Source of the DNA: an uncultured bacterium
Lineage (GTDB): Bacteria > Oederibacteriota > Muellerivitia > Muellerivitales > Muellerivitaceae
NCBI GenBank assembly: GCA_964624625.1
Contig: CAZUXW010000006.1
Span: 13,896-77,895 of the forward strand
Length of the DNA: 64,000 bases
Direction of reading: 5' to 3'
The notes below the pieces were generated by a model, which was given only the letters and a program-made list of their open reading frames with translations, ran no database searches and had not been told where the DNA came from. Position numbers and translations under genes: made by a program. Numbering within the stretch: the stretch's first letter is position 1; the number at the start of each line of letters is the position of its first letter. Shown in pieces: positions 12,863-36,744 of the stretch.

Positions 12863-12882
12863 CGAAAAGCCTCCCTCGACCC

Positions 12883-13713
12883 TCATTTAAAGAATTGTAC
12901 CTCATCCACCCAAAAATCAACCCCCGCGATTCCCGCGATGTTGGCATTGCTTTCTTCCCATTGCAACCAAAGGACTTCCTTCAGGTTTTCACCGGTCAAA
13001 TTAGGCGGATTCATCGGCCAACCAAAGCCCCCCCGGGTTAAATCGGTGAACTTCACCGAGAATTTCCGCCAGGACCCGTTGGTACTGGGAAGGGTCAAGG
13101 TGAAATGGTCGTAACACTTGCCTGTGGAATTGTCGCAATTTCCAGCGGGCGGGGCCTGGGTCTGGAGGGTGGGAATTTGGAAGACTCTTTTTAAGACCTT
13201 GTCCGCGGCGGAGGTTTTGTAATAAAAGTTCACTCCCGTGAAAAAGCTCATGTCGTACTTCGAACCGCTTTCCATGGGAATCTGGAAATCCACGGCCGGG
13301 AAAACGTTGTTGCTAAGATCCGTCACGGCCCCGGAAATATGGGCGGCCCAAAGGCTGTTGTTCGCTCCCGGCCCCTCGAAATCCAGAACGGCGTTCTCAT
13401 AGATTGAAAAATTATTGACGACCTGAACCGAACCGGGAAATTGAAGTTGATTCCCTGGTATGGGTTCGAAGAGCAAGGGATTGATCGGATAAAAAGAAAC
13501 GGGAAACCCGTTGATATCGGTTAAGGGGCCGCTGGGCGGTTGGGACGAGGGAAGGGTTGAGGGAACGCTGTTGAAATCAACCACCACTGTCCGGTCAGCG
13601 GTCGTGGCCGGCGCCGAATAGGCTCCCACTGGCGCGACCTTGGCTTCGCAGCCAGCCCAAAGGGCGGCGCAGGACAGGGCCAGGAGGAAAAAAAGGTTAA
13701 AACATGATTTCAT
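12883..13713 (-). CDS. Lipoprotein with CBM11/CIA30-like domain (paralog)
   Basis: Lipobox WAGC; YDMSFFTGVNFYYK, GNC..KCYDHF, WRKFSVKFTDL, VLWLQW, FWVDEVQFF. Confidence 0.6.
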   Translation of the reverse strand: MKSCFNLFFLLALSCAALWAGCEAKVAPVGAYSAPATTADRTVVVDFNSVPSTLPSSQPPSGPLTDINGFPVSFYPINPLLFEPIPGNQLQFPGSVQVVNNFSIYENAVLDFEGPGANNSLWAAHISGAVTDLSNNVFPAVDFQIPMESGSKYDMSFFTGVNFYYKTSAADKVLKRVFQIPTLQTQAPPAGNCDNSTGKCYDHFTLTLPSTNGSWRKFSVKFTDLTRGGFGWPMNPPNLTGENLKEVLWLQWEESNANIAGIAGVDFWVDEVQFFK

Positions 13714-16066: not shown

Positions 16067-18317
16067 AGGAAGCCCTCCAAATCTCATCCCAGCGCTCATA
16101 GTCGGGATTATCGGTAGTGTATTGGGTCAGGAACAGGTCGCCCTTGAACCGGATTTCGGGAGTGAAGGGAAACTCCAAGCCGTAAGCCAATGTCGTCTTG
16201 GTGGCATTGAGCGATTCGTAGGAATAACTTCCGATGCTGGAGTTGTCCAAATAGAAGGGATAATTAGCGTAGGAGGAGGGATTCCCCTGTCCGGTCAATA
16301 TAAATTCTTTACCCGAGGATCCGGTCCGGACAAAGGCGAAGGAGCCCACCAGGGAAATTCCCGGAATGGGAATGGAAAAATCCGCCGCCAGGATGACCGT
16401 ATCGGTGATAAGGGGATCCCCCAATCCTACGAGGGTGGTTTTTTGGTTCTTATAATCCAACCCGATGGAATAGGTCCGGTCCTTCAGGCCAGCGGCCTTG
16501 GCGATGTCGGCGCCGACCGCCGCCTCCAACCCGCCGAACGTCCGGATGGTGGAAACGTTGGGGGGCGTGTTCGTCTCAACCGCTACGGCTCCGTCGCCCA
16601 ATCCATCCAGGACATAATTGGGTTGAATCTCATGCATGCCCAGGCTGCCCGAATCGAGGACAAAAGAAGCTTGGGGTTTCAACCAACCATCTTTGCCGAT
16701 ATCGGCTGAAATCCCCAGGATGATTCCCAAACGGTTGGGAGTGGCGTCCCCGTAGGGAAGAATATTTTCCACCGTGCGGTCATAAGCAGCGAAGGCAGGC
16801 CGGTTCACGCCTTGGAAAACATAATTATTGATATAGCCAGGCAGGTTGTTGTCCAGGTAAAGATTGGTGCTGATGTAACCCTTGGCTCCCGGCAGGGCGT
16901 TATAACGGTTGGTCTGGGCTCCAGGGGAATAAAAGAAGGGGCCGATATTCATGTACTTGGCCTTCAAATGGACTCCGAACAGGTTGACCGAGCCTTCGGA
17001 CAAGAGGGCCCAATCCTGGAAAGTGCGGTCCGCGTTTCGGCTGTCATCGTTGTATTGGCTGAAAGCGGCTTCCGTGTTGCCGGACAAACTGATCTGGTCG
17101 GCTATCGGCAGGTTGAAGCGGGCGCTGATACTCCCAATTTGGTACTGCTTGGCGAAACTGAGGGAAAAATCGGGAAGGTAAGGGACGCTGGCGCTGTTGG
17201 GATCATCCCAGAGAAGCAACCCTGTTCCCTTGAATTCCAGGTTGTCGTTGAAAAAACTCATGGAAGCCTGGGTCCCGGCGTAATAATCGCTGAAGCTTTG
17301 TTCAGTGGACGACTTCAATTCTCCCGCCATGGCCTGGACCTTGAGGCGGCCCAGCACCTCGTTATCGGGCCAACCCAGCGCGGTGGAGGCTTGAAAGCCC
17401 CTCATGTGCCAATCCGTGCCGTGATCCATGTAAACAATTTCCTCAACGTCCTTCCTGGTCCGCCTAAAGGAAGTTGGTTCAATGAAGGTGTAAACCGGCA
17501 CTTCATAATTCCAAAGGGTGAGCTTGGTGTACTTCTGGTAGAAATCCCCGGCGGTGAAGGTGAATTGTTCGTTGTAATTTTTCAGGGCCAGCCAGCGCAG
17601 GACCAAGGGAGGCGTGATGGGATCAACATAATAGAGACCCACGGTGCGGTACAGCCGGGTTTTGGCCTCGAACAAGAGAAAAGGCACCGGTACACTCTTG
17701 ATCCCAAAATCGATCATCATGACATCGTTGTAATCCATGTTGCCATAGGCCGCGCCATCCCCGTAACCACGGTAAGTGTTGAATATGCCGTGGGAGAACC
17801 CGGTCATTTCCGAGCCAGTCCGTTTAAGGTATTCCTGCTGGAGATCGGCGAATTGACCAGCTCGGAGCTGTTGGTCGTAAAGCTTGTCCTCCAACTTGGC
17901 CAGGTTCACGTTCATCGCCGATATTTCCGACTTGAACTCCTCTACCAGGTCCCTCAGGCTCTTGGAAGCGGCCGGGGCGCTGTTGTCCGCTGGCGCTGCC
18001 AGGGAGGGTTGGGCCAATTCACCCGGAAGGCCGGGAGGCAGCCCATCCAAAGACGGCGGCGGTAAAACGTCCGCTTGGGCCAATATCATTTGGGCCGCTT
18101 GGGCTGTGAGTTGGGCCACTTGAAGATTTGTCATATCCCTTACCGGCCCTTTTGGTTTTTCAGCCCAGCCAGCCGCGACCAAATCCTTGACCCTCTCGTC
18201 GATCCAAGGATCCCGGTCATGGGAGGACAAGGTCCCATGACTCGCCCACAAGGGCGAGGCCCAGGCGAGAGCCAGGCAAAAGGTCAATTGGAAGAGGATC
18301 CGCTTTTTCACTTTCAA
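16050..18317 (-). CDS. Putative outer-membrane beta-barrel with degenerate SLH domain and coiled coil (paralog)
   Basis: Signal peptide; DPWIDERVKDLVAAGW..MTNLQVA; LRDLVEEFKSEISAMNVNLAKLEDKL coiled coil; C-terminal YEVSF. Confidence 0.6.
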   Translation of the reverse strand: MKVKKRILFQLTFCLALAWASPLWASHGTLSSHDRDPWIDERVKDLVAAGWAEKPKGPVRDMTNLQVAQLTAQAAQMILAQADVLPPPSLDGLPPGLPGELAQPSLAAPADNSAPAASKSLRDLVEEFKSEISAMNVNLAKLEDKLYDQQLRAGQFADLQQEYLKRTGSEMTGFSHGIFNTYRGYGDGAAYGNMDYNDVMMIDFGIKSVPVPFLLFEAKTRLYRTVGLYYVDPITPPLVLRWLALKNYNEQFTFTAGDFYQKYTKLTLWNYEVPVYTFIEPTSFRRTRKDVEEIVYMDHGTDWHMRGFQASTALGWPDNEVLGRLKVQAMAGELKSSTEQSFSDYYAGTQASMSFFNDNLEFKGTGLLLWDDPNSASVPYLPDFSLSFAKQYQIGSISARFNLPIADQISLSGNTEAAFSQYNDDSRNADRTFQDWALLSEGSVNLFGVHLKAKYMNIGPFFYSPGAQTNRYNALPGAKGYISTNLYLDNNLPGYINNYVFQGVNRPAFAAYDRTVENILPYGDATPNRLGIILGISADIGKDGWLKPQASFVLDSGSLGMHEIQPNYVLDGLGDGAVAVETNTPPNVSTIRTFGGLEAAVGADIAKAAGLKDRTYSIGLDYKNQKTTLVGLGDPLITDTVILAADFSIPIPGISLVGSFAFVRTGSSGKEFILTGQGNPSSYANYPFYLDNSSIGSYSYESLNATKTTLAYGLEFPFTPEIRFKGDLFLTQYTTDNPDYERWDEIWRASYEVSF

Positions 18318-18329
18318 AACCCTTCTTTA

Positions 18330-20807
18330 TTAAAAAACAAAGTAAAGCTGGCTGAACACCTGGTCGCCCTCATAGCTGTTGGCGGCAACGTTGGCGCTGT
18401 GGAAGATCAAATGTTTGTAACGGCAAATCCATTTCGCGCCTCCCCAGGGGATATCCCAGGACAAACCGGCGCCAATGGAATCGGTCCGGTAATCGATGAG
18501 GGGGTAGGTGTAATCGCATTTCCAATATTCCATTCCCAATTCACCGGACAGGTTCAGGTTCTTAAGGGCCTGGATCATTAAGGTGCCGTCGTAAACCGTC
18601 TGGTCAAACAAGGACGGGATATCGGCCTGGGTTGGGTCGGTAGCTTTCCCGGAGACTCGGTTGTCCGTGAAGAAAAAGGCGCCATAGAAGGGCGCTTCCA
18701 TGCCCAACATTTTGTTGAGCTTGAGCTTGGTGGTCAGGGTGATGTAATTGTAGGACTTCAAGTGGGTCAAGTTGATAAAGCTGTTAAACCCGCTGCCCAC
18801 GGTGACGGGCCTGCCGTTCACGTCCTGGATATTCTCGTTGGGCACCGGCAGGATCAGGGGAATCCTCTCCGTACTCATTTGGAATTGGTAACGAACATCG
18901 TAAAGGAGGGCCCCCGGATCCCCGTCATCACGAATCGCCTGGATGTTGCTGCTATAAGTGCTTCGAACGGAGTAAGGATTGGGATAGCCGCCCCAGAAAT
19001 TCAGGCCCCAGAGTCCCTCGTCATCGGGGTAATAAAAAGAAAGCATGTTGATAGGCTCTATCACGTTATAACCGGTGGGACTATAGACCGTCGAATATTC
19101 GGTCTTTTGGGCAACGTCGAAATTAACGACCACATTATCCAAAAAGCTGGGCCAGCTTTTCATCCAATCCTGCTTGCGGCCGTTCCATCCTAAATTCACC
19201 TTCCAGCCGTAACGGTCGCTGATCAGGTTATCCACTTCCCCGACGGCCCCATATACGTCCGGAACGTGGTCCTGAGTGAAGTTCACCCCATATCGGGCTA
19301 GGTTGAAACCGCTCATCATGACCCTGCTCTGGAAATTGGCGTAATCGTCGCTGATGGCTTGATAGGAAACCGTGAAGGGATAACAGGACAGGGAGGCCAA
19401 GCCTGCCCCCGCTTCCACGGCTTTGGGATTTAAGTCCGACAGGTTATTGAGATCGAGTCCGGTGCGGAAATAGGACCCTCCCCACTCAAGGGACAAATAG
19501 AAGGGTTTGAGATCGACGCCCAAGTCCACTTCCAGGCACTTCAGGTCCAATTGGGCCACCAGCGGCTGGGAGATTCCGAAATTATCGTTCACCCATTGGG
19601 TCGCCACCGAGGTCCGGATCAGGCCGTTGGCGAATGGCTGGGAATACTTGAGCGCTTCTTCCCATCTCTGGGTTTGGGTGGCGGAAGTTCCCATGCGGCC
19701 CACCAAGAAGTTGATTTTGGCGTCCTTGGAAACCAGGGGTAGGTTGGTACCGGTCATAAAAAGCCCGTCAAAAACCCGGTCATTGGTGGATTGGGCTCCA
19801 ACGGAGGCGGTGGCGACGAAGCCGATGCTGTCCATATAGTCATCCCAAATTTTGGTGTCCTTATCGTCGGAAAAGTTTTTGACCTCAAATGGCCTCTCAA
19901 AACGCCGAATCGATGTCGGCGAAACGCCCCTGGTAAAATCACCCAAAGTCGTATCCGGCTTATAAGCCTCCACCGCGAAATTGGTGTCCCAACGGCCCAA
20001 AGAACCGTCAAGGATGAAATTGACGGCGGGGGCATAAGGCGCCAGGGAAACGGCCCCTGCGTTGGAGTTGGAGGAGGAAACCTGTCCCGTAAAGCCCACG
20101 TCAATGGCTCCTTTCCCTCCCAGGTCGGTGTAGATTTCCATTTTAATTTCATTGATCGCCCGCGAGACATTTTCCGTTGCGATACCCGACAAATGGATAT
20201 TCTCGAAACGCGTATAGGACTTGGTGTTGAAATGGGGAATGCCGCCGGATTTATTGGCCTTCTTCCAGACCGAATCCACCTCATCTTGGATGGGTTTTAA
20301 CTTCGCGATTTCATCTTCGCGCCCTTTCAAACGTTCGTCGTTGAGGGCCAAGCGGGTCCTTAAAGCCGCGGACTCAGCCCGCAGTTCCTTCAACAGCTCG
20401 TCAATCTCGCTCCTGACTCCGGGAGCGACAAATACGGGCATCGGCGTCGGGGTGGACAAAAGCGCAGGAGGAAGCGTCATCAGATCGGGCGACGCCGGTT
20501 GGAGGAAAGGAACGGGGGTGGGGGTAGCGGGCAGGGGCTGTCCCAATTGGGGGGCGGAAATCCGGGCCTTGGCCTTTTCAGTGTAGAAAGCCAGTTCCAT
20601 TTTGGTGACAACCTTGCCCTCGTCGAGCACAGCCTTATCCCCGGGGTCCAACAAGCCGTAATCCCCCAGTTTTTTCACCCGCTGGTAAAGTTTTTGGTCG
20701 GAGGTGATTTGCTCGTAGGGATTGGCGAAAAGTCCCGTGGCGCCGGCGCCGAGGAAAAGGGCCAAAAGGAAAAGCCGCGCTGGGATGGTCTTGAACCTCA
20801 AGCTCAA
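18330..20807 (-). CDS. Putative outer-membrane beta-barrel with degenerate SLH domain and coiled coil (paralog)
   Basis: Signal peptide; LYQRVKKLGDYGLL..VTKMELA; EIDELLKELRAESAALRTRL coiled coil; C-terminal LYFVF. Confidence 0.6.
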   Translation of the reverse strand: MSLRFKTIPARLFLLALFLGAGATGLFANPYEQITSDQKLYQRVKKLGDYGLLDPGDKAVLDEGKVVTKMELAFYTEKAKARISAPQLGQPLPATPTPVPFLQPASPDLMTLPPALLSTPTPMPVFVAPGVRSEIDELLKELRAESAALRTRLALNDERLKGREDEIAKLKPIQDEVDSVWKKANKSGGIPHFNTKSYTRFENIHLSGIATENVSRAINEIKMEIYTDLGGKGAIDVGFTGQVSSSNSNAGAVSLAPYAPAVNFILDGSLGRWDTNFAVEAYKPDTTLGDFTRGVSPTSIRRFERPFEVKNFSDDKDTKIWDDYMDSIGFVATASVGAQSTNDRVFDGLFMTGTNLPLVSKDAKINFLVGRMGTSATQTQRWEEALKYSQPFANGLIRTSVATQWVNDNFGISQPLVAQLDLKCLEVDLGVDLKPFYLSLEWGGSYFRTGLDLNNLSDLNPKAVEAGAGLASLSCYPFTVSYQAISDDYANFQSRVMMSGFNLARYGVNFTQDHVPDVYGAVGEVDNLISDRYGWKVNLGWNGRKQDWMKSWPSFLDNVVVNFDVAQKTEYSTVYSPTGYNVIEPINMLSFYYPDDEGLWGLNFWGGYPNPYSVRSTYSSNIQAIRDDGDPGALLYDVRYQFQMSTERIPLILPVPNENIQDVNGRPVTVGSGFNSFINLTHLKSYNYITLTTKLKLNKMLGMEAPFYGAFFFTDNRVSGKATDPTQADIPSLFDQTVYDGTLMIQALKNLNLSGELGMEYWKCDYTYPLIDYRTDSIGAGLSWDIPWGGAKWICRYKHLIFHSANVAANSYEGDQVFSQLYFVF

Positions 20808-20886
20808 AAGAAACCTCGAAATAATTTATTGATGAAACCCCTGATAAAAACCAGGCCGCGACGGCGGCGGTCATCCCAACGAGCTT

Positions 20887-21663
20887 CTAAAAGAATTCGA
20901 CTTCATCCACGTAATAATCGATGGCGTAGCTTCCCGCGGCGTTATTGGCGGAATGATCCCATTTGATCGTGATAAATTCCTTTAAGTGGTCCACCAAATC
21001 CGGCGGCGTCACGGGCGATCCCCAGCCGGATTCCCTTTTCATATCGGCGAAAGCGTATGTTTTCTGGATCCACTCGGGGGCGGTGGATAAATCGCCCCCA
21101 AAATTGTTATAGCAACCGTCCGTACAGGTCCCGCCCTCGGAAGTCGGGAGGGTCGGGGCGATCCCGATCATGAAGCGGCGCTTCAAGGCTTGGTCATCGG
21201 AGGGGCATTTATAGTAGAACTTGAGGCCCGTGAAGGCGCCAGCGTCATAGTAGCCGCTGTCCTTGAATTTTCCCTGGAGGGTGAAGGCCGGATAAGCCGC
21301 ATCGCCCTTGTCGATCAAGGTTCCGAATACATGGGCGCATTTGGGAGTCCCGTTGGCGCCGCCCTCGGCGATGAAGTTATCATTGGCTTTGTTGCCGGCG
21401 AAGGACAAGGTCATCCAAGTCCCGCCGGGATTGCCGTACAACTTGGGGCTGAAGGTTTTGGACCCGTCGTCAAAATTATTCATGACGCGGGCGTCTTTAG
21501 GAACATCCACTTTCTTTTGGTTCCCGCCGGGATTGGCCAGACCCATGGCCAGTGACGCGTTTTTAGAGCCCTCATTGACGAACACCGCGCCGCAACCCGT
21601 TAAAAGCGACAAACCCAACAGGCTTAACATCAGAGGAGAAGTTTTCACCGAGCCCATATCCAC
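20887..21663 (-). CDS. Lipoprotein with CBM11/CIA30-like domain (paralog)
   Basis: Lipobox LTGC; NNFDDG, YDAGAFTGLKFYYK, GGTCTDGCYNNF, FITIKW, YYVDEVEFF. Confidence 0.6.
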   Translation of the reverse strand: MDMGSVKTSPLMLSLLGLSLLTGCGAVFVNEGSKNASLAMGLANPGGNQKKVDVPKDARVMNNFDDGSKTFSPKLYGNPGGTWMTLSFAGNKANDNFIAEGGANGTPKCAHVFGTLIDKGDAAYPAFTLQGKFKDSGYYDAGAFTGLKFYYKCPSDDQALKRRFMIGIAPTLPTSEGGTCTDGCYNNFGGDLSTAPEWIQKTYAFADMKRESGWGSPVTPPDLVDHLKEFITIKWDHSANNAAGSYAIDYYVDEVEFF

Positions 21664-21781
21664 CCCTTCCAGGAGAGACAGTTGTGCCAGGAAAGTCTCT
21701 TAAAATTTAAGATTTTAAGGTTTCTCGCCTGAGTTTCTCGGCCGTTGATTCGCGGACAAGCGACGGCCCCAGGGCCGTCCT

Positions 21782-21810
21782 TTGACAAAGCCCCGGTATT
21801 TTACTAGAAA
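21782..21810 (+). promoter_or_regulatory. Possible sigma70 promoter facing the 3' end of the rlmD fusion
   Basis: TTGACA-17 nt-TAGAAA; the -10 element is imperfect. Confidence 0.3.
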
Positions 21811-21883
21811 GGTTTAAAAAAGCGGGAATGTTTTTTAACCTGGAAGAAACTTTGAAGGGTTGCGCCCAGCGGCTTTTTCCCAA

Positions 21884-21899
21884 TGAAAACCGGTTTCTT
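21884..21899. promoter_or_regulatory. Candidate LacI-family operator
   Basis: TGAAAACCGGTTTCTT with palindromic core AAACCGGTTT, upstream of the CBM/porin locus. Confidence 0.4.
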
Positions 21900-21958
21900 C
21901 AAGTGGTTGGTTTAACGAGAAGAACCCAGGTGAACCTGGAGCCTTCAACAGGCCTCCG

Positions 21959-24900
21959 CTACTTTTTAGAGGTTTCGGTTCCGCGCTCATCGGCGGACGC
22001 CTCATCGTCAACCCGTTTCAGGACGGCCCCGGAAGATAGTTTTTTAAGATAAATAAAGTCGAAGGCCCTCAGGGCCTGTCCCGGCTTTTCCACCATGACC
22101 GCCGCCATGTAACGATTGTCCCTTTCCGGGTGGTCTTCCCGGGGAATGTTCACGAAAAGGCTCTTGATCTTGACCATGTTTCCCGCGGGCAGGTCAAAGG
22201 GCCCCACCGTGGCCAGGTCGACGTAATAATCCTTGGCTGTGTCGATTTGGTGGAGCACCACGCCTTTTAAATTCTCCGGTGAATGGTTCCGCACCACCAC
22301 GCTGATGGGAACGGGGACCCCCGCCGGGATTTCTTTAGGCGCCAATAGAGTTACCTCGATGGGCGACAGGCCCTGCGCCTGCCGAAGGGTGGAAAAAGCT
22401 TTCCCTCCCGCGATGACCCACTCCATGCTCGAATAGGGGCCCCGGATGCCGTAGATAATCCTGTAGAGATCGTGCCAAAACATGCCCACTCCGGCGTTCA
22501 CCGGGAACCAGTTGTGGAACGTCTCGATTTCCCTGTTGTAAAGTTCCTCCGGGCCGGGCGGATCCAGGGATTTTTGAACCCAATTGAAATCCACCATCTC
22601 GCCCATGGCGTACATTCCGTTGCCCCTCGCCAAGTACTCGGGCCATTGCTTTTTCATGGATTCCAAAGTGTTGCGGTCGCCCTCGTAGAGCATGATGTGG
22701 TTATAATTGATGCCCGCATCCACGAACATGGCCGGGTCTTGTCCGTGCTGATGGCCCATTTGCCAGCCGAGCGTAAAGGTAAACACAGGCTTGGTCAATT
22801 TGGCCTCGTCGAGGATGCCCTTCAACGTCAGTGCGACCTTGTGGGCGCGCCACCACTCGAATAGGGCGACGACGTCCTTGTTTTCCTTCAACTCCACCGT
22901 CTTCGCCAGCCAATGAATCCGCTCTTGCTTGGTCATGGTCCAATACTCGGCCGGGCCCGGCACGCTCAAGTCCCTTACGAACTCATCAACCATCTCATAA
23001 CCGGCCGATCCCGTCCTCACGTAATCCATCCCCACGATGTCGACGTCGGGTTCGTTTTCCATTTCTTTCAGGAAATCGATAATGTCCTGCCGGCGCTTCT
23101 TGTCGTTCAGGGAAATAAAACGGGTTTGGATCACCTCGTCGGTGTCCGGGTCATACCCCAGGGAGAACTCATAGGGCGCCTGGTTCCAGGCGTCACCGAT
23201 CACCTTGAAGGTGGTCATGTAGGCCGCGAATTTTAATCCCTCGTTGTGGGCGGCCCGGGCGTACTTCCGTCCCGTCTCCAGGTCCCCCCGCGCGAAGGGA
23301 AAGTCTTTGGGATTCAAATGGTCCCAAATGGAAGTCTGTCCCATCAAGTAGCAGTAAAGATTGGCGCCCATGAACTTGGCCCAGTCAATGGCATTGGCGG
23401 ATTTGAACGAATCGCCGCCATCCAGCGCCGGCACCGCCCCGCCGACCATTTGTTTCCCCCCCTCCATCGTCAGTCCGGCGTAGCCAGGGTAAAGGCCCTG
23501 AGGCCTCAAGGGAGAAACCGTGAAGGCGGACTCGAATGTTTTCGGCGAGTTCCATTGGGGAGCGGAAACAATGACCTCCGCCACATAGGTTCCGGGAGCC
23601 GGATTGTAGGGAATCGGCCAGTTGCCGAATAATTTACCGTTAGCTGAGTCTTTCTTAAGCGTCAATCGGGACTTGCCGTCCACCATGGAGACCGGCTCCC
23701 CTCCCCGGTAAACTTCCACCACCGCGTGCATCTGGGAAAAATAGGGCATCTCGGCCGCGTTGACCCTCACCTCGAAGGGGACCATTTCATACCGAAGAAA
23801 ATTTCGGGACGGCATGACCGCGATCACGTCGGGAATCATTTGAGAAACCGTGGCCACCAGGGCCCCGGACCGCTTGCTCTCCGGGGACATCGTGGCCTTG
23901 GCGACCAGCCCGCCTCCCACCAAAATAGCAGCGATTAAAGCCCCCCGGATCAGCCTTTCCCCCCTGATTCCAGTCGGCAAAACAACCTTCGGCATGGAAA
24001 ATGAAGGAATCTTCCAGTTCAACAAAGGCCTCCGGAGAGGAGGCCATAAAGGCCTTTCGGCGGGGGGACCCGCCGGATCCAGTCTTTGGCTCGGGGGGTT
24101 ATCCAACAGGGGGTCCGCTGTGGATCCGGCGGCGCTCGGAACCTCAGGCGAAAGGCCCAGGGCCTTCCCCGTCGGGGCAGGATTTGTTTCAGCCGAATCC
24201 GGCCCCCAGCTGGAAATTTTATATGACGAGGCAAGGACCGAAGCGACAATCTCTTCCTCGCTTTCGGTCATGATTCTTGACTCGGTCAAAATCTCCACGG
24301 ACCCGGAAATCTCAAGGGGTCCCGCCTCGATCGTGGAATCCAAGGTTGGTGGTTTTTCCCGGGAGCCTGCTTGGAGGGCCGCGAACATCCTCTCCTTGAT
24401 CCCGAGCGTCTTTTCCCGGACTCCCTCCACTAAATCCCGGCTTTTTTCCGCTCCTGACTTCGTCAAGCGGTTGAGGTGCTCGGCCCTTTCCTTCGAATAA
24501 TCCTTCAGCGCCCCAGTGGTCTTAACGGAGGTATTTCCGGCGAGGCGGAAAAGAAAAGCGAATCCCTTCCCCAGGGCCCGGATCATTTCATAAATTCCAA
24601 CCGCCAAGGACAGAACAATAGCCAATAGGAGGCCCAATCCGGCTCGGAGCTGTTGCGCGACGGCCCCGAAAAGAGTGGAAGTTTTTTCTTTAAAAACTTC
24701 GAAATTGGCCGAGACATTCAATGTCGGAGGCTCGGGGGGTTTAGACAAGCGGAACGACTCCGCCTCAACCGATGTCTGCGGAGGCGCCGCCACGGGGGGC
24801 GGTTGGAAAGTCAGTTTGACAACGGATTCCACATGGTAGGTTTGCGGAAACATGTCCAGTGGCTGGATCCAATCCACCGTGAACCCGTGCTTGACCAACA

Positions 24901-26236
24901 GGGCCAGATCCCTGGCCAAAGTGGAGGGATCGCAGGACACATAAACCAGCCGTTCGGGGCGCAAGGCGGTGATCCGGGCCAGCACTTCTGGCAATACGCC
25001 CTTTCGTGGCGGATCCAGGATGGCCGCGTCAATTTGGGCGAGACCCTTGTCCTTCAGCCCCATGAGAATTTGGGCCACATCGCCTTCGAGGAAATCGATA
25101 TTGTTTTTTTGGTTTAAGGCCGCGTTGAACTTCGCGTCCTCCACCGCGGGACCGACCTCCTCGGCCCCCACCACGTATTCGGCCTTATCCGCCACCGCCA
25201 TCGCCAGGGTACCAATGCCGCTGTAAAGGTCCAGGACTGTTCCCCATTTTTTTTTGCGGGCCGGTTCGCCCAAGGCTTCGCGGACGATGGTATGCAGCAT
25301 ATCGGCCTGGTCCGTATTCACCTGAAGGAAGGATTTTAAGGACACTTTCAGCTTGAGGCCGTCAATGATTTCGTAATAGTGGTCCCGGCCCGCCAGAAGG
25401 GCGGTTGTGGGGCCGAAGACAATGTTGGTGCGGGAAGGATTGACGTTTTGCAAAACCCCGACCAGTCCCGGCACCTCCTCCATTAACTCCCTGGCGATCC
25501 GCGGCAGGATTTGATCCATTTCCTCGGGAAGAACCGATGGCTTCTGGAGCCTTTCGTCGGGGACCTCCGTCCGGGTGATGAAAGCCAACAACAGCTCGCC
25601 GGTTTTATAGCCCTGCCTCAGGGTCAAGTGCCTCAAAAATCCCGTGTGTTTTTTTTCCTGGTAGGGAGTCAATCCCGAACGGTCGATTTTCTGTAAAACT
25701 TTTTGGATCAAGTCGTTAATGGCGTCGCCCTGGATCGGGCAGCTGTGGTAGGGGATCAAGTGGTGGGACCGGGGCTCATAAATGCCGGAAATGAAATGGC
25801 CGTCCCTCATGGAAATGACCGGCATGGCCTTGTTGCGGTAAGCGTAGGGGTTGGGCGAGGGCAGGCAGGGCTGGACCGTGACCTCCGTCAGGTGGCCGAT
25901 CCGTTGGAGCGCGTCCACGACGAATTGCCGCTTGGTTTGCAATTGCCGGGGGTAATTAAAATGCTGCCACTGGCAGCCGCCGCATTCCTCGAAAATGGGG
26001 CAAAGGGGCGCCACCCGGTCCGGGGAATGCCTTAAGACGGCCTGGATTTCACCCGTGGCGAAATGGTCCCGGACCTGGGTGATCTTGACCCGGACCCTTT
26101 CGCCCGGAAGCCCGCCTGGAACGAAAATGGCGAAGTCCTGATATCGCCCAACCGAATCCCCGCCAAAAGCCAGCGACGTGATTTCAAATTCAATTTGATC
26201 CCCGTGCCGCACGGGTTTTACGGCGTTGGTGTTCAT
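21959..26236 (-). CDS. rlmD: 23S rRNA (uracil-C5) methyltransferase RlmD-like domain fused to a TM segment and a glycoside-hydrolase-like domain
   Basis: TRAM domain, CPIFEECGGC Fe-S motif, DLYSGIGT, DPPRKG, YVSCDPSTLARD, DMFPQTYHVE within the first ~480 aa; then ~950 extra aa with hydrophobic segments and a DIVGMDYVR motif; no internal stop. Confidence 0.8.
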   Translation of the reverse strand: MNTNAVKPVRHGDQIEFEITSLAFGGDSVGRYQDFAIFVPGGLPGERVRVKITQVRDHFATGEIQAVLRHSPDRVAPLCPIFEECGGCQWQHFNYPRQLQTKRQFVVDALQRIGHLTEVTVQPCLPSPNPYAYRNKAMPVISMRDGHFISGIYEPRSHHLIPYHSCPIQGDAINDLIQKVLQKIDRSGLTPYQEKKHTGFLRHLTLRQGYKTGELLLAFITRTEVPDERLQKPSVLPEEMDQILPRIARELMEEVPGLVGVLQNVNPSRTNIVFGPTTALLAGRDHYYEIIDGLKLKVSLKSFLQVNTDQADMLHTIVREALGEPARKKKWGTVLDLYSGIGTLAMAVADKAEYVVGAEEVGPAVEDAKFNAALNQKNNIDFLEGDVAQILMGLKDKGLAQIDAAILDPPRKGVLPEVLARITALRPERLVYVSCDPSTLARDLALLVKHGFTVDWIQPLDMFPQTYHVESVVKLTFQPPPVAAPPQTSVEAESFRLSKPPEPPTLNVSANFEVFKEKTSTLFGAVAQQLRAGLGLLLAIVLSLAVGIYEMIRALGKGFAFLFRLAGNTSVKTTGALKDYSKERAEHLNRLTKSGAEKSRDLVEGVREKTLGIKERMFAALQAGSREKPPTLDSTIEAGPLEISGSVEILTESRIMTESEEEIVASVLASSYKISSWGPDSAETNPAPTGKALGLSPEVPSAAGSTADPLLDNPPSQRLDPAGPPAERPLWPPLRRPLLNWKIPSFSMPKVVLPTGIRGERLIRGALIAAILVGGGLVAKATMSPESKRSGALVATVSQMIPDVIAVMPSRNFLRYEMVPFEVRVNAAEMPYFSQMHAVVEVYRGGEPVSMVDGKSRLTLKKDSANGKLFGNWPIPYNPAPGTYVAEVIVSAPQWNSPKTFESAFTVSPLRPQGLYPGYAGLTMEGGKQMVGGAVPALDGGDSFKSANAIDWAKFMGANLYCYLMGQTSIWDHLNPKDFPFARGDLETGRKYARAAHNEGLKFAAYMTTFKVIGDAWNQAPYEFSLGYDPDTDEVIQTRFISLNDKKRRQDIIDFLKEMENEPDVDIVGMDYVRTGSAGYEMVDEFVRDLSVPGPAEYWTMTKQERIHWLAKTVELKENKDVVALFEWWRAHKVALTLKGILDEAKLTKPVFTFTLGWQMGHQHGQDPAMFVDAGINYNHIMLYEGDRNTLESMKKQWPEYLARGNGMYAMGEMVDFNWVQKSLDPPGPEELYNREIETFHNWFPVNAGVGMFWHDLYRIIYGIRGPYSSMEWVIAGGKAFSTLRQAQGLSPIEVTLLAPKEIPAGVPVPISVVVRNHSPENLKGVVLHQIDTAKDYYVDLATVGPFDLPAGNMVKIKSLFVNIPREDHPERDNRYMAAVMVEKPGQALRAFDFIYLKKLSSGAVLKRVDDEASADERGTETSKK

Positions 26237-26331
26237 GTGTGTCCTGGAAATAAGGATCGGATATCAACGGGCCTTTACGCGAGATTTTCCTGACGGCTGA
26301 AGTCGGACGGCGATCACCGGCGTTAAGGCGG

Positions 26332-26360
26332 TCGTTTTTCGCGATCACCGCGAAAAACGA
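26332..26360. repeat. Perfect 12-bp hairpin upstream of rlmD
   Basis: TCGTTTTTCGCG-atcac-CGCGAAAAACGA. Confidence 0.7.
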
Positions 26361-26602
26361 ATGACGGCGTTAAAAAAAATCCACGCCGTGATTTGGGTTC
26401 CACTGCTTATTTTAACGATTTTTCATGGCAGGGCAACCCTCCTCATGGGCGGCCTCCTTCGGGAACCCCGCGGTTCATTCCGTGGTTCTCATAGGCCGGC
26501 ACCACTTCGTTCATCCGGGGTTTCCTTTAACTTCCCTGGGATAACCGGCATGGCTGAAAACCCCGCATCCCGCCCCAAAACAGGGAAACCCGGGAAGTCG
26601 GA

Positions 26603-26611
26603 TGCTATACT
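26603..26611 (+). promoter_or_regulatory. Extended -10 promoter element
   Basis: TGcTATACT 30 nt upstream of the GTG at 26641. Confidence 0.4.
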
Positions 26612-26640
26612 GCGTCCCGCAACCTATGGATCGAGGGCCC

Positions 26641-28074
26641 GTGAAAACCTTTTCAAGGATAATCCTTACCCTTCCCCTTTTAGCCGGTATGGCCGCCGTT
26701 CCCTCCTTTTGCCCCGCTTCCGAAACAAGGCTCAATGCCGCCGGCGGTTTGGAGTCGGTTTTCATGGACGAGTCCAGCGACTTAAACCTCTTTCTCAATG
26801 GAAATCCCGCAGGGCTGGGCTACCTTAACAGCCGCAGCCGGCTGGACCTTTCGGCCAGGTGGCTGGACTCGGACCAGGAAGGACCTTGGGGTTCCGCCCG
26901 CCTCCATGCCTGGGACGCCTTGGCCCAGCCGGAGGACCATCCGGGGTACGGGGGAGCGATTCTCTTTCCCTCCCCCCACTGGGCCTTCCAAGCGGCTGGG
27001 GGATTTTCCCAGACGGGGGGAACGGAGACCCCTTCCTTGAACCAATACCAGGGAATGGTAAGGATTTGTTACGCGCTATCCTTCGGGTCCGTGGGAGTGG
27101 AACTGCTCGATTCCCAAAAAGATTTAACCCTCATTTCCAATCCCTGGGTGCCGGCTTCCGAATTCCTCGAAGGTGAAAGAACCCAAAACCAGACGCTGGT
27201 GAAAACCGGAATTGCGGTCGTTTTCCCCGGCGTCACCTCCCCCGGGGAACCCCGGTGGCAAGCCGGTGCCTATTTGGCGCTTCCCGCGGGATCCCAATCC
27301 GGCCGGCAATCCTTCAGCATATCCGAAAACAGCTTGGCTCCTATCCTGGTCAGCCAAACCACCACCGCCGATCTCTATCACGCCTCGGGTCTTGAAATGA
27401 TTTATGAGGTTCCGGCCAGCCTCAAAGTGGAGCTTTCGGCTTCCCTCCTGGACGAATCCTCGAAATTTGAGCAAACCACCTCCGCGTCGACAACCTTGTT
27501 TGAAAATCCATCCTTGGGCCGCCTGAATTTCCAGTCCGGAAACATGGAGGGATCTTTCCGCTATTCCCTTCCCTTGGACGAGGATCAAAACCTAAAATGC
27601 GGCGGGAGTTTGGGCTTTCATTGGGACGACAACTTCGCCAACTACGGTTTCTCTTCCAATTCATTCCAACAACAACAATTGAACCTTCTCCTGGGGTTGG
27701 GTTTCGAAGAGGTCAAGGAATACACCATGGGACTTCAATGGAAGAGCCGCCGCACCCTTGCCGCGAATGGGGATACCCCACCGGCAAACCAAGCGGCTCC
27801 CACGACGGCCGATTTTGTTCAATTGGCTTTCGGAGGAGAAAGGTGGCTTTCACCGGTTTGGGCCTTAAGGCTGGGGCTGGTCCTAGAACAGGACGACGCC
27901 TTCCGCGGCGGGAGCCCTACCTTGACGACCACCCTCCATGGGGGGGCTGGATGGGAACAGGTGTTGGGAAGGTTGGATTTCGGGCTTTCCCTGGGGCAGT
28001 CCCTGGATACGGGAAATTCCAGCAACACGATCGGGTTCTTCGGAGCTGAATTGTCCGCGACGCTCTTCTTATAA
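26641..28074 (+). CDS. Putative outer-membrane beta-barrel protein
   Basis: Signal peptide after GTG 26641; NPAGLG motif reminiscent of FadL/porin-type barrels; alternating strands; C-terminal LSATLFL. Confidence 0.6.
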   Translation: MKTFSRIILTLPLLAGMAAVPSFCPASETRLNAAGGLESVFMDESSDLNLFLNGNPAGLGYLNSRSRLDLSARWLDSDQEGPWGSARLHAWDALAQPEDHPGYGGAILFPSPHWAFQAAGGFSQTGGTETPSLNQYQGMVRICYALSFGSVGVELLDSQKDLTLISNPWVPASEFLEGERTQNQTLVKTGIAVVFPGVTSPGEPRWQAGAYLALPAGSQSGRQSFSISENSLAPILVSQTTTADLYHASGLEMIYEVPASLKVELSASLLDESSKFEQTTSASTTLFENPSLGRLNFQSGNMEGSFRYSLPLDEDQNLKCGGSLGFHWDDNFANYGFSSNSFQQQQLNLLLGLGFEEVKEYTMGLQWKSRRTLAANGDTPPANQAAPTTADFVQLAFGGERWLSPVWALRLGLVLEQDDAFRGGSPTLTTTLHGGAGWEQVLGRLDFGLSLGQSLDTGNSSNTIGFFGAELSATLFL

Positions 28075-28100
28075 AACCAAAAGCAGGCATCACCACCATG

Positions 28101-28229
28101 CACCACAGGTCCTTCGGACCACAGAAGCTTAGTAAGGCAAAGATGAATTATTTGTGATGAGGAAAAGCAAAAACCTGATCCGGTGATTGGCTTTTAATCG
28201 AGTCTCTGTGGTCCGAAGGACCTGTGGTG
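28101..28229. repeat. Perfect 25-bp inverted repeat between convergent genes
   Basis: CACCACAGGTCCTTCGGACCACAGA (28101-28125) and its exact reverse complement (28205-28229). Confidence 0.9.
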
Positions 28230-28262
28230 AAACGGGGGTTGAATTTTTTCGAGAGGCGGGAA

Positions 28263-28970
28263 CTACTTTTTATTGACTTCTTTTTTCGACATGGGGGTCG
28301 CGGCGTCGCCTTCCAGCCGGACGTTGTCCACATAGGCCACCATCGGCTCAGGAACGCCGGCCATGTTGACCGCGAATTTGAAGGTCCGGATATTGGTCAA
28401 GTCCAGCCTGGTCTTGATCAGATCATCCAGGGGCACGTCGATATTCGTGACTTTTTTCGGGGTCAAAACTCCCGTGGTTTCGTAAACATAAGCCTTGGAG
28501 TCGACCACTTGAATGAAATAGCTGACTGGTTGGGCCTGGTCATTGTAGACGTCCAATTTTAAATCCCCAAAATCCTGCCATTCATAGACGTTGAGTTTCG
28601 TGACCGAATTGGTGTCGAGGGTGATTTCCGGCCTCCATAAAACTTGGCCCGCCGCGGAATATAAAACCTGCGAGGAATTCATCGAGGCTACTCCCGGCAC
28701 GGGAGTCACATAAAACTGGTGGGTGGTATAGAAGGAAACCTTCGCGCATTTTTTGCCGTGGGTCTGGTTTTCGGTGGAAGGCTCGATTTTCGCGTAACCG
28801 CCCGTGGTCCAGTCAAAATCATCGCGGAGATATTCGAAATCGTCGATAAGCTGGGTCTTTTTCTGATCCTTGCGGTGCTTGAAGGCCCGGGTCAACCCCA
28901 AACCGCTGACAACGGCCCAAAGGAGGGCGATCACCAAGAGAACGCCCAGGATTTGCATCAGTCGCCGCAT
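28263..28970 (-). CDS. Membrane-anchored protein with a carbohydrate-binding-like beta-sandwich
   Basis: N-terminal TM; LIDDFE at the domain start, LDLTNIRTFKF, YVDNVRLE at the end, similar in pattern to the CBM11-like paralogs. Confidence 0.5.
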   Translation of the reverse strand: MRRLMQILGVLLVIALLWAVVSGLGLTRAFKHRKDQKKTQLIDDFEYLRDDFDWTTGGYAKIEPSTENQTHGKKCAKVSFYTTHQFYVTPVPGVASMNSSQVLYSAAGQVLWRPEITLDTNSVTKLNVYEWQDFGDLKLDVYNDQAQPVSYFIQVVDSKAYVYETTGVLTPKKVTNIDVPLDDLIKTRLDLTNIRTFKFAVNMAGVPEPMVAYVDNVRLEGDAATPMSKKEVNKK

Positions 28971-29040
28971 AGGACCCCTAAAGAATCGATTTTAACCGGT
29001 GGCCTGAAACGTCCCGGAGGACCCTTGGCTCAGGCGAGGC

Positions 29041-29069
29041 ATTGTATCAGCCGAGGTAGGGTCTCGCAA
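29041..29069 (-). promoter_or_regulatory. Sigma70 promoter of the 28263-28970 gene
   Basis: Minus strand TTGCGA-17 nt-TACAAT. Confidence 0.55.
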
Positions 29070-29207
29070 CCCTTGCATCAAGCTTGGGACGAACCAGGGA
29101 CTGGCGCTTGAAATGGCTTGCTTGAGTGTTAAACCCTTGGGCGCCTGGCTGGCGATGAACTTTTTTTAATTAAAATCAGCGTTTTTCGGGAGGGCCTTGC
29201 CCGCTTT

Positions 29208-30242
29208 TCAAAACCACTTTTTCTTGGAGCCGCAGGATTGCCGCACCACCAGCTGGGTCGGAATGAGGATTTGCCGGGGCTTCCATTCCCCCTGGCTCTG
29301 TATTTTTTCGATCAAAATCCTGGTGGCCTCGACGCTGATAGCCCGGTAATCCTGGCGGATCGTCGTGAGGGAATAGGGGGGTGTAAAGGCCTCGGTCACA
29401 TCGTCAAACCCGACCAGCCCGATGTCCGTTCCCACGGTCAGTCCGGCTTCCTCAATGCTATCCCAGGCGCCCAAGGCCATCAAATCGTTCGAAGCGAAAA
29501 CCGCCGTGGGCCTGTCGGGCAAAGCCAGTAATTTTTTCATGGCCTCCCTTCCCGATTCCCGCAGGAAATTTCCTTCAACGATATATTCGGGGGGGATTTT
29601 CAACCCCTGCTTCCGGATCTGCTGATGAAAGCCCTCGAGCCTATCCACGGCGTTGCGGGATGTTTTCACCGGGCCGGCGATACAGGCTATTTTGTGATGC
29701 CCCAATTTCACCAAGTGATCCACCACCTGGATGGCCGCCTCGCGGTTGTCGCTGTCGACGAAGTCCACGTTCTTGTCCTCGGTTCGGTAACCAATGAGGA
29801 CCACCGGCACCCGGTTCGCCGTCAAGTGAAGGACGTCCTTTTCCTCCAGGTAGGGGGAAACCATGAGGACGCCGTCCACCACATTGTGGAAAACTTTCTT
29901 GTACACTTCCATGGGATCGAAAACGCCGGCGATCGTGTTGATGAGAAGGCCGAATTGGTTTTCCTGGACCACTTCGTTGATCCCGTTGAGGAGGCCCACG
30001 TACCAAGGGGTTTGAAAGTTCAATTTATAGCCGGCCCAGGAGTAGAAAACCTCGATCAAGTTGGTGTGCTTGACCACCAGTCCCCTGGCGATGGGATTGG
30101 GCTTGAAATGAAGGTCGGCGATGGCCTTTTGGACCTTCACCCTGGTCTCTTCCAGGACATTGGGGTTGTTATTCAGGACCCGGGAAACGGTGGAAATGGA
30201 AACCCCGGACTTTTGCGCGACATCATAGATCGTTACAGTCAA
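29208..30242 (-). CDS. LacI-family transcriptional regulator
   Basis: TIYDVAQKSGVSISTVSRVLN HTH, PNPIARGL hinge, VDSDN, FASNDLMALG, VGFDD, LTTIRQD. Confidence 0.95.
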   Translation of the reverse strand: MTVTIYDVAQKSGVSISTVSRVLNNNPNVLEETRVKVQKAIADLHFKPNPIARGLVVKHTNLIEVFYSWAGYKLNFQTPWYVGLLNGINEVVQENQFGLLINTIAGVFDPMEVYKKVFHNVVDGVLMVSPYLEEKDVLHLTANRVPVVLIGYRTEDKNVDFVDSDNREAAIQVVDHLVKLGHHKIACIAGPVKTSRNAVDRLEGFHQQIRKQGLKIPPEYIVEGNFLRESGREAMKKLLALPDRPTAVFASNDLMALGAWDSIEEAGLTVGTDIGLVGFDDVTEAFTPPYSLTTIRQDYRAISVEATRILIEKIQSQGEWKPRQILIPTQLVVRQSCGSKKKWF

Positions 30243-30344
30243 GGCAGCCTCCGAAAATAATTAGCAATGTGGAATTTTAAAACTTCCCCAAACCCACAAC
30301 CCTATAAATTCCTAACTCCCGATTCCAAATCCCGATGGAAGCCC

Positions 30345-31082
30345 TCATTCCCATCTTGTCGCCAACCCCATCAAAACCAGGCCCCCGAGGAAAGCCCCGA
30401 TATGGTAGTTTCGCCAATGCTTCGCCTGGTGGATCTCCGGGGCCAAGTCCACGACCGCGATATGGATAAAGGTTCCAGCGGAAAAGGCCAAGGCCGCCCC
30501 CAGGACGGCGGTCGTTTTTTCCGCCAGGAACATTTGGGAAAGGACCGCCCCCACCGGAATCATGAGGGAAACCAGTCCGATCAGCAGGGCTGTGTTTGGT
30601 TTGGAACGCTTCCCCGCCATCAGGAGGCTGGAGAGGGAAAAAAATTCCGGCGCCTTGTGCCCCAGGGTCGCCAGAAAAACGATGAAACCTAATGAGGGAA
30701 TCGAAAGGGAGGCCCCCAGGGCCACGCCGTTCACTAAATTATGCAGGCTCAAACCCGCGAAGGCGACCCATCCGATTTTGTGGTAGTCGCAATGGTCTTC
30801 CTCGCAAGGGTGGGAGAAGGTGAACATTTCCAGGAGAAACAGAAAAAGAAAACCGCCCAGGAGCCAAAACCCCATGGACTTTCCCAAATACTCGATGGCG
30901 TCGGGAATTAAGTGAAGGAAAGCCGCGCCCAAAAGAACCCCTGCCCCGAAACTGATGAACAGGCGCAGATATCGGGAATCCTTATCCCTGCGGTGAAAAT
31001 AAAGGGGAAGGCAGGCACCCAGCCAACCGGCGGCCATCACCATTCCACTGTAGATTAACGAGCTTTCCATGGTTGATCCCAA
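30345..31082 (-). CDS. ZIP-family metal (Zn/Fe/Mn) transporter
   Basis: FGAGVLLGAAFLHLIP, His/Cys loop HPCEEDHCDYH, LHNLVNG, HKAPE, FIHIAVVDLAPE. Confidence 0.9.
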   Translation of the reverse strand: MGSTMESSLIYSGMVMAAGWLGACLPLYFHRRDKDSRYLRLFISFGAGVLLGAAFLHLIPDAIEYLGKSMGFWLLGGFLFLFLLEMFTFSHPCEEDHCDYHKIGWVAFAGLSLHNLVNGVALGASLSIPSLGFIVFLATLGHKAPEFFSLSSLLMAGKRSKPNTALLIGLVSLMIPVGAVLSQMFLAEKTTAVLGAALAFSAGTFIHIAVVDLAPEIHQAKHWRNYHIGAFLGGLVLMGLATRWE

Positions 31083-36689: not shown

Positions 36690-36744
36690 TGTTCCTATTT
36701 TACCAGACAGGCTAAAATCCAACCCATTCCATGGAGGAAAAATC

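Follow-up and report, generated by a model that had tools for sequence, protein, structure and literature searches.

RlmD/RumA is a textbook soluble rRNA-modification enzyme. Why, then, should a copy of it run on without a stop codon, through a hydrophobic segment and into a second domain of quite another kind? The question is raised by a gene of an uncultured bacterium, carried on a 64,000-nucleotide (nt) stretch of contig CAZUXW010000006.1 (the window), whose list of open reading frames (ORFs) gives for 21959..26236 of the minus strand a single ORF of 1425 amino acids (aa) that opens with ATG. Coordinates below are window positions unless another contig is named, and residue numbers are those of this protein. 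An earlier reading made from the letters alone (the sequence-only reading) had taken the product for an RlmD fused to a membrane anchor and an extracytoplasmic glycoside-hydrolase-like domain. We find the fusion to be genuine, virtually beyond doubt, and by a modest preference we read the protein as a type-II (N-in/C-out) inner-membrane preprotein, in which two enzymes are placed on opposite sides of the membrane.

One reading frame with two conserved blocks

Over aa 24-470 and model positions 3-432 of 432, the N-terminal half scored 409.8 bits with the TIGR00479 (rumA) model, whose cutoff is 183.55. It also matched the Pfam families TRAM (PF01938, E 1.5e-10) and tRNA_U5-meth_tr; with the stricter equivalog PRK13168 it scored below the cutoff (249.6 against 458). 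The conservation profile was drawn from an alignment of 41 full-length homologs. The four predicted iron-sulphur (Fe-S) cysteines are invariant in all 41, and the uracil-binding Gln, motif I for S-adenosylmethionine (SAM; DLYSGIGT), motif IV (DPPRKG), Cys435 and Glu470 are invariant or nearly so across the same set, as are the strings VSCDP and PQTYHVE. Judged by these residues, aa 1-476 are a complete, strongly constrained [4Fe-4S], SAM-dependent methyltransferase of RlmD/RumA type, as the sequence-only reading had described, in frame with some 950 further residues.

The best solved relative, aligned end to end, is Streptococcus pneumoniae SP_1029 (E 1e-69; PDB 5XJ1), followed by Escherichia coli RumA (PDB 1UWV/2BH2). 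These known enzymes share with the window protein the TRAM domain, the four Fe-S cysteines, the SAM motifs, the nucleophilic Cys and the base Glu; unlike the fusion, which runs 950 residues further through a membrane segment, known RlmD/RumA proteins are soluble and of ~430-520 aa (4263 matches). Because the best solved relative is an RlmCD, an enzyme that we take to target both U747 and U1939, the RNA target of the fusion's RlmD is uncertain. We know of no explanation for the role of the RlmD/RumA Fe-S cluster. When the RlmD half was searched by itself, every match of at least 74% identity proved to be a piece of the fusion or a split copy of it; after a sharp gap came ordinary RlmDs of 441-522 aa at no more than 45% identity. 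No close stand-alone RlmD was found among these matches, and no second RlmD-like ORF within the window.

The C-terminal 945 aa, used as a query, recovered 53 proteins, of which ~45 are 1260-1510 aa long and carry both TRAM and U5-methyltransferase Pfam domains. With each GTDB species represented by one genome, 20 loci were then recovered, nearly all labelled candidate division FCPU426 (a candidate phylum), 17 of them with both halves. In 16 of these 17, from different studies and sequencing technologies, RlmD and the C-terminal module (C-module) form one uninterrupted ORF, and the frame is open despite a linker ranging from 160 to 412 aa; the relatives thus fuse the two halves, contrary to the separate genes that would have refuted the sequence-only reading. 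Base composition is even across the ORF, and its translation contains VSCDP, PQTYHVE, LGLLLAIVLSLAVGIYEMI, ALIAAILVGGGLVA, DIVGMDYVR and HIMLYE.

The sequence-only reading had itself called for a check on a lost stop or misassembly near the end of RlmD. Four rhizosphere metagenome runs, assembled independently, gave contigs across 23700-25100 with 0 indels, no stop and five single-nucleotide variants, all synonymous. That a misassembly, lost stop or frameshift has joined two genes is hence a negligible prospect, given the agreement of these four assemblies and the recurrence of the fusion across species genomes. What can be said for such an artefact is that a few homologs on long contigs (L001, P0052, P0211 and P0213) have the fusion in broken form. 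L001 is the sole exception among the 17 loci: its halves, collinear with the intact fusion, are split by a 1-nt frame change at the T-run CCATTCTTTTGA in the linker (L001 5985-6005), and its assembly is long-read in appearance, so that a long-read indel error is the likely cause. All four breaks are probably errors of this kind, with genuine splits still possible.

The 41 homologs show two conserved blocks, aa 1-476 and ~800-1400, each with ~0.8-0.9 column conservation, and between them a gap-rich, poorly conserved region (aa 480-750). Ratios of nonsynonymous to synonymous substitution (dN/dS), approximate in that dS is saturated, were ~0.04-0.055 for RlmD, ~0.05-0.09 for the C-module and 0.15-0.5 for the linker (aa 477-750). 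Taken together, this analysis indicates that the fusion is ancient and confined to the FCPU426 lineage and rare sister groups.

The C-terminal module and its relatives

Against Pfam, NCBIfam and PDB sequences the C-terminal 945 aa returned nothing significant, and a profile of 49 family members had no match in its barrel among PDB sequences, only arrestin-like noise on its immunoglobulin (Ig)-like domains. No family member reaches any Pfam threshold. Searched exhaustively with HMMER, 1.84 billion cluster representatives yielded 199 clusters, most of them stand-alone proteins of 600-750 aa at 30-38% identity. They begin with a classic signal peptide, a lipobox or a signal anchor, and the YxRYE sandwich known from the fusion follows at once; in the nearest relatives the signal peptides are of the classic, cleavable AxA type. 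Read from these predicted export signals, the C-module family is extracytoplasmic. Its named members, from Candidatus Firestonebacteria, Candidatus Edwardsbacteria and Elusimicrobiota, are all annotated as 'hypothetical protein'.

An AlphaFold2 (AF2) model of aa 740-1425, with a predicted local distance difference test score (pLDDT) of 80 and a predicted template modelling score (pTM) of 0.79, displays in order a helix, a beta-sandwich (796-907), a barrel (~920-1287) and a second beta-sandwich (1293-1399), in agreement with the order of helix, beta-rich domain, alpha/beta region and final beta-sandwich that had been proposed. When the whole module was compared with the PDB, all Foldseek matches were glycoside hydrolases (GH) of the same sandwich-barrel-sandwich layout (GH2, GH66, GH13, GH14), at low template modelling (TM) scores of 0.2-0.36. 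Because the low scores reflect differing domain orientations, the barrel was modelled alone on a deeper alignment, giving pLDDT 94.9 and pTM 0.93. Its best Foldseek match was the C-terminal domain of E. coli PgaB (GH153; E 1e-10, TM 0.56-0.62), with further matches to GH14 beta-amylase (TM 0.58), GH20, GH42 and GH156. The modelled fold is very probably of glycoside-hydrolase type, without a close solved relative, and together with the relatives' export signals this bears out the extracytoplasmic GH-like domain of the sequence-only reading. Whether the module would be an active glycosidase is, on the model, evenly poised.

The sequence-only reading had also likened this region to GHL10/DUF4015 barrels. 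From the structure of Cwp19, the GHL10 active site has been described as an Asp-Tyr pair and a Tyr at the ends of beta4 and beta6, respectively, a conserved Gly on beta7 in place of the catalytic Glu, and a conserved Arg, and the nearest structural neighbour of that domain is PgaB (PMC5765458). By the strand ends that DSSP assigned to our model, invariant or near-invariant residues would fall at the corresponding positions: D1071-Y1072 and Y1184 at the ends of beta4 and beta6, G1212 on beta7, and R1048. PF02638 (GHL10) was the most recurrent weak match of the family, found in 6 of the 49 members at E 0.002-0.1, all under the 27.9-bit gathering cutoff. The window protein itself had no PF02638 match even at E<=1, and its C-terminal half no Pfam match. 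By hhalign, the family profile and E. coli DigH (GHL10) gave a non-significant probability of 3.7% over 23 aligned columns; as a positive control, DigH scored 453 bits on PF02638. The GHL10 likeness thus holds weakly, through these sub-threshold matches and the residue pattern, and finds no backing in the DigH comparison, whilst DUF4015 never appeared in any scan.

With the GHL10 proteins (Clostridioides difficile Cwp19, E. coli DigH/YddW, Deinococcus radiodurans DogH) the module shares a secreted (beta/alpha)8 barrel, the PgaB C-terminal domain as nearest fold and, apparently, the Asp-Tyr/Tyr/Gly/Arg pattern, and differs in its flanking Ig-like sandwiches, which are not part of GHL10. With the PgaB C-terminal domain, a periplasmic envelope-polysaccharide enzyme that hydrolyses poly-N-acetylglucosamine (PDB 4F9J/4P7L), it shares the barrel fold. 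Identity is 9-10% with no relationship at sequence level, neither the single sequence nor the profile matched a GH153 sequence in the PDB, and the partner domain in PgaB is a deacetylase, unlike the Ig-like sandwiches of the C-module. We read the relation to the GHL10/GH153 group as one of superfamily, not of membership.

The stand-alone genes that we examined sit in tight strings of housekeeping genes with 4-nt overlaps, and none adjoins RlmD. One lies beside polA and lgt/lspA; two others (L024 6001-8043 and L026 6001-7872) are directly upstream of mfd (TRCF) on two unrelated contigs, with a 4-nt overlap in L026. Their position beside mfd points to a housekeeping setting, not a polysaccharide-utilisation locus. 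It is tempting to see in such strings the origin of a neutral 'Rosetta-stone' accident, in which adjacent housekeeping genes merged by stop loss, an internal signal peptide let both products work, and the join brought no advantage. Tight strings with short overlaps are a setting in which fusions arise easily, the linker is weakly constrained, and both halves of L001, although in different frames, could still be produced. We nevertheless consider this account quite improbable: stand-alone relatives were never seen beside RlmD, the frame has stayed open across large linker indels in 16 of 17 genomes and ~45 metagenomic homologs, and a conserved motif directly follows RlmD. Moreover, fusions with a dead RlmD-like domain (below) have been kept, not trimmed, and the L001 split, at a T-run in an apparent long-read assembly, may itself be an error.

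Probable topology, export and possible fate of the two halves

Two hydrophobic segments had been picked out by the sequence-only reading, of which only the second is universal among homologs. The first (aa 534-552) is too weakly hydrophobic to pass the threshold in roughly a third of them and contains Arg or Lys in many; in the window protein, the 50 aa that follow it contain 11 Lys and Arg, against 3 before it, and by the positive-inside rule this excess would keep its downstream flank cytoplasmic. As far as the alignment can tell, it is not a conserved membrane pass. The second (aa 762-781, the ALIAAILVGGGLVA region) is the only conserved island in otherwise variable surroundings, and is flanked on average by 3.4 Lys and Arg before as against 1.7 after.

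The anatomy of the second segment, with its flanks, looks like that of an internally placed Sec signal peptide with a predicted signal peptidase I site. A positive n-region (net charge +1 to +5 across the 41 homologs) precedes an uncharged h-region with GGG, which is 14 residues long in the window protein and in 28 of the 41 homologs (range 14-19); there follow a c-region, A779-K-A781, with Ala at -3 in 40 and at -1 in all 41, and then TxSP. In n-region charge, h-region length and small residues at -3 and -1 the segment agrees with a Sec signal peptide; in placement it does not, since the folded domain (476 aa) and the linker come before it and put it at ~aa 760. Two alternatives were ruled out: a twin-arginine translocation (Tat) signal, there being no conserved RR adjoining the h-region, and translation of the C-module by itself from a conserved internal start, since homologs do not share Met748. 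We consider an N-in/C-out topology likely, and the extracytoplasmic nature of the C-module family lends it independent support. For putative signal peptidase I cleavage at the A-x-A site, the balance is even.

In the reading that we favour, RlmD would fold and act in the cytoplasm, whilst the hydrophobic segment, inherited as the signal peptide of a once stand-alone module, would drive Sec-dependent export of the C-module. Signal peptidase I would then cut after A779-K-A781 and release a ~72-kDa soluble periplasmic glycan hydrolase of GHL10/GH153-like type, with an envelope or exopolysaccharide glycan as our best guess for its substrate. RlmD (~86 kDa with the linker) would be left tethered to the membrane on a long flexible linker, so that the fusion would provide co-expression and membrane localisation, not allosteric signalling.

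A different fate was envisaged by the sequence-only reading, which had proposed a coupling of rRNA modification, across the membrane, to a cell-surface glycan enzyme or sensor. That proposal was pure inference, and sits badly with a linker of 160-412 aa and with an invariant A-x-A. In its fuller form, the protein would be an uncleaved bitopic unit in which the GH-like module recognises a glycan of the envelope or the environment, by binding or sensing it, and the state of the module (occupancy, oligomerisation) controls the output of the RlmD fold, be it RNA/ribosome binding or Fe-S redox sensing; alternatively, the RlmD fold would anchor ribosomes or RNA at the export site. The fusion has indeed been kept across the whole phylum, and its architecture may parallel the well-known single-pass sensors ToxR/CadC and RsgI. 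Together with PknB-PASTA, these proteins (the RsgI anti-sigma factors having CBM/GH-like sensors) resemble the fusion in having a cytoplasmic domain, one hydrophobic segment and a large outside domain; unlike them, the fusion has an rRNA methyltransferase in the cytoplasm in place of a DNA-binding, anti-sigma or kinase domain, a long disordered linker, and a signal-peptidase-type A-x-A after the segment. We hold this coupled unit to be possible but rather unlikely for FCPU426. Its low-complexity, poorly conserved linker is hard to square with signal transmission, its RlmD keeps all catalytic residues and looks like an ordinary housekeeping enzyme, most members of the C-module family are stand-alone and those examined never adjoin RlmD, and the invariant A-x-A points to cleavage. 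Cleavage at A-x-A that makes two independent enzymes of the protein is no less probable than functional trans-membrane coupling.

The strongest material for coupling comes from a sister lineage. In P0062 (1135 aa), the first 470 residues align end to end with the window RlmD at 24% identity and score 72.8 bits on TIGR00479, under the cutoff; TRAM and the four Fe-S cysteines are kept, and motif I, DPPRKG, the nucleophilic Cys and the base Glu are lost. Its sole relative, P0200 (70% identity), shows the same losses. Between the two, the pseudo-RlmD is 64-72% identical and the C-module 65-78%, without gaps, so that the dead domain is conserved as well as the C-module; both have an 18-residue transmembrane segment, almost no linker and no A-x-A. 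P0056 (1102 aa) carries a still more degenerate N-domain, RlmD-like by hhalign only (probability 92%, E 6e-7, 378 columns). Judged by their sequences, the RlmD-like domains of P0062/P0200 and P0056 are catalytically dead. A neighbour-joining tree of the barrel placed the FCPU426 fusions in one clade (100/100 bootstraps) and P0062 with P0056 in another (97/100), the two being sisters in 0/100; the method is crude and the deep nodes star-like, and the tree is compatible both with one ancient fusion and with two independent ones. A signal peptidase I gene (Peptidase_S26; L022 6286-7044, plus strand) lies two genes upstream of P0062 (8001-11408), a proximity that may be coincidental.

Several points weigh against a cleaved preprotein with an active hydrolase. 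With its longer transmembrane segment, minimal linker and lack of A-x-A, the P0062/P0200 protein is probably an uncleaved bitopic unit, and retention of its dead RlmD-like domain argues that the cytoplasmic domain matters beyond co-expression. Bacteria rarely cleave a signal sequence that lies internally, here ~760 residues into the protein, and the Gly/Ala-rich segment might instead belong to an uncleaved anchor, in which it would pack helices as a small-xxx-small motif. In the window protein the first of the two stretches is itself quite hydrophobic (Kyte-Doolittle value 2.3); were it really to cross the membrane, the topology would differ. With regard to activity, the usual catalytic Glu on beta7 is replaced by Gly and the C-module matches none of the curated GH families. 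Finally, none of the RNA-seq runs searched contains the locus.

Neighbouring genes and significance

The features of the fusion and of its surroundings are collected in Table 1. Across ~18 genomes the gene order runs from a LacI regulator through a 235-aa transmembrane protein, often an opposite-strand 490-aa protein, the fusion and a 258-aa lipoprotein-like protein to two or three outer-membrane-protein-like paralogues (750-825 aa). The 235-aa protein always lies between the LacI-family regulator and the fusion in related genomes, which suggests a sugar-responsive operon. At least the first of the three paralogues has a signal peptide and a C-terminal ...YFVF, and looks like an outer-membrane beta-barrel. 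The C-terminal half of the 258-aa lipobox protein is 25-44% identical to two downstream ORFs. In the genome of L013 the fusion is followed directly by lepA, without the porin locus; the carbohydrate-binding module (CBM)/porin locus, immediately upstream of which the sequence-only reading had placed the fusion, is therefore common beside it but not always present. Among the neighbouring genes, Pfam or NCBIfam families were matched only by LacI, LepA, a ZIP transporter and an autotransporter-repeat protein. The autotransporter-like 1855-aa protein, as read from its repeats, implies a diderm envelope. Promoter and terminator scans gave no excess over shuffled controls, and Rfam had no matches in 18000-31000. 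A 216-aa antisense ORF opposite the linker (23850-24500, plus strand) probably arises as the shadow of a GC-rich coding strand.

Table 1 Features of the fusion gene and its neighbourhood in the window (m5U, 5-methyluridine)
Feature	Residues	Window position	Strand	Basis or remark
Whole ORF, RlmD-linker-signal-GH-like fusion		21959..26236	-	1425 aa + stop; kept as one ORF in 16/17 FCPU426 genomes
RlmD/RumA-type 23S rRNA m5U methyltransferase	1-476	24809..26236	-	Pfam, TIGR00479, residue conservation in homologs
Landmarks of the RlmD half	TRAM 9-64; C79/C85/C88/C166; DLYSGIGT 336; DPPRKG 408; nucleophile C435; base E470			
Short motif FRLxKPxEPxSLN(I/V)SANFxxFKEKT, directly after RlmD	495-519	24680..24754	-	Alignment; kept in all fusions
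Ala/Gly-rich hydrophobic/amphipathic stretch (LGLLLAIVLSLAVGIYEMI)	526-570	24527..24661	-	Hydropathy, alignment
Low-complexity Ser/Pro/Glu/Ala-rich, indel-rich linker	571-750	23987..24526	-	Conservation 0.15-0.35; gap fraction <=0.57; dN/dS 0.15-0.5
Signal-peptide-like export/anchor segment	751-781	23894..23986	-	Common to all 41 homologs
N-terminal Ig-like beta-sandwich of the exported module, motif YxRYExV	796-907	23516..23851	-	AF2 model m0c9a4f651e31, family alignment
(beta/alpha)8 barrel	915-1290	22367..23494	-	AF2 barrel-only model, Foldseek, conservation
Near-invariant barrel residues	E925 (b1); R1048; D1071-Y1072-R1074 (b4); H1164/Q1166/D1167 (after b5); Y1184 (b6); G1212/D1216 (b7); H1255-D1256 (b8)			
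C-terminal beta-sandwich	1293-1399	22040..22360	-	AF2; weak Pfam Transglut_C, CARDB, NPCBM_assoc matches in relatives
Charged unconserved tail	1400-1425	21962..22039	-	Conservation 0.26; pLDDT <50
Three paralogous 755-825-aa proteins		18330-20807, 16050-18317, 13697-16099	-	No Pfam/NCBIfam; downstream of fusion in ~17 genomes
258-aa protein with lipobox (LLTGC) and two downstream paralogous ORFs		20887-21663, 12883-13713, 12026-12886	-	No known family
235-aa protein with N-terminal transmembrane helix; LacI-family regulator		28263-28970, 29208-30242	-	
490-aa ORF divergent from fusion		26602-28074	+	Opposite strand, 29-46% identity, ~10 genomes; no family
1855-aa protein, seven autotransporter beta-strand repeats, autotransporter-like C-terminus		31203-36770	-	

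We found no description in the literature of an RlmD joined to an exported GH-like module: the architecture and the C-module family are new, and the parts are of known kinds. Public annotation of the fusions reads 'RlmD' only and misses the C-module family. What emerges is a family without a curated entry, comprising ~200 clusters of extracytoplasmic TIM-barrel proteins of GH-like type from FCPU426, Firestonebacteria, Edwardsbacteria and Elusimicrobiota. If the internal A-x-A is used, the fusion would be one of the rare cases in bacteria in which signal peptidase resolves a polyprotein.

A further and bolder possibility, which we consider unlikely, is that the RlmD fold serves as a non-catalytic or more-than-catalytic module (RNA/ribosome binding or Fe-S sensing) of a trans-envelope device, coupled through a single pass to an envelope glycan hydrolase. 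Were this true, the device would tie ribosome or rRNA status to envelope remodelling, or the reverse, and the dead but well conserved RlmD-like domains of P0062/P0200 and P0056, all with TRAM and those of P0062/P0200 with the Fe-S cysteines as well, would be the 'pure' form of that function. If the FCPU426 and P0062/P0056 groups fused independently, the coupling would moreover be convergent. A whole phylum whose only visible close RlmD is the cytoplasmic head of an exported glycosidase-like protein offers an unexpected natural experiment, and so do the sister lineages in which the RlmD fold and the Fe-S cysteines have outlived catalysis; both bear on roles of the RlmD scaffold besides U1939 methylation.

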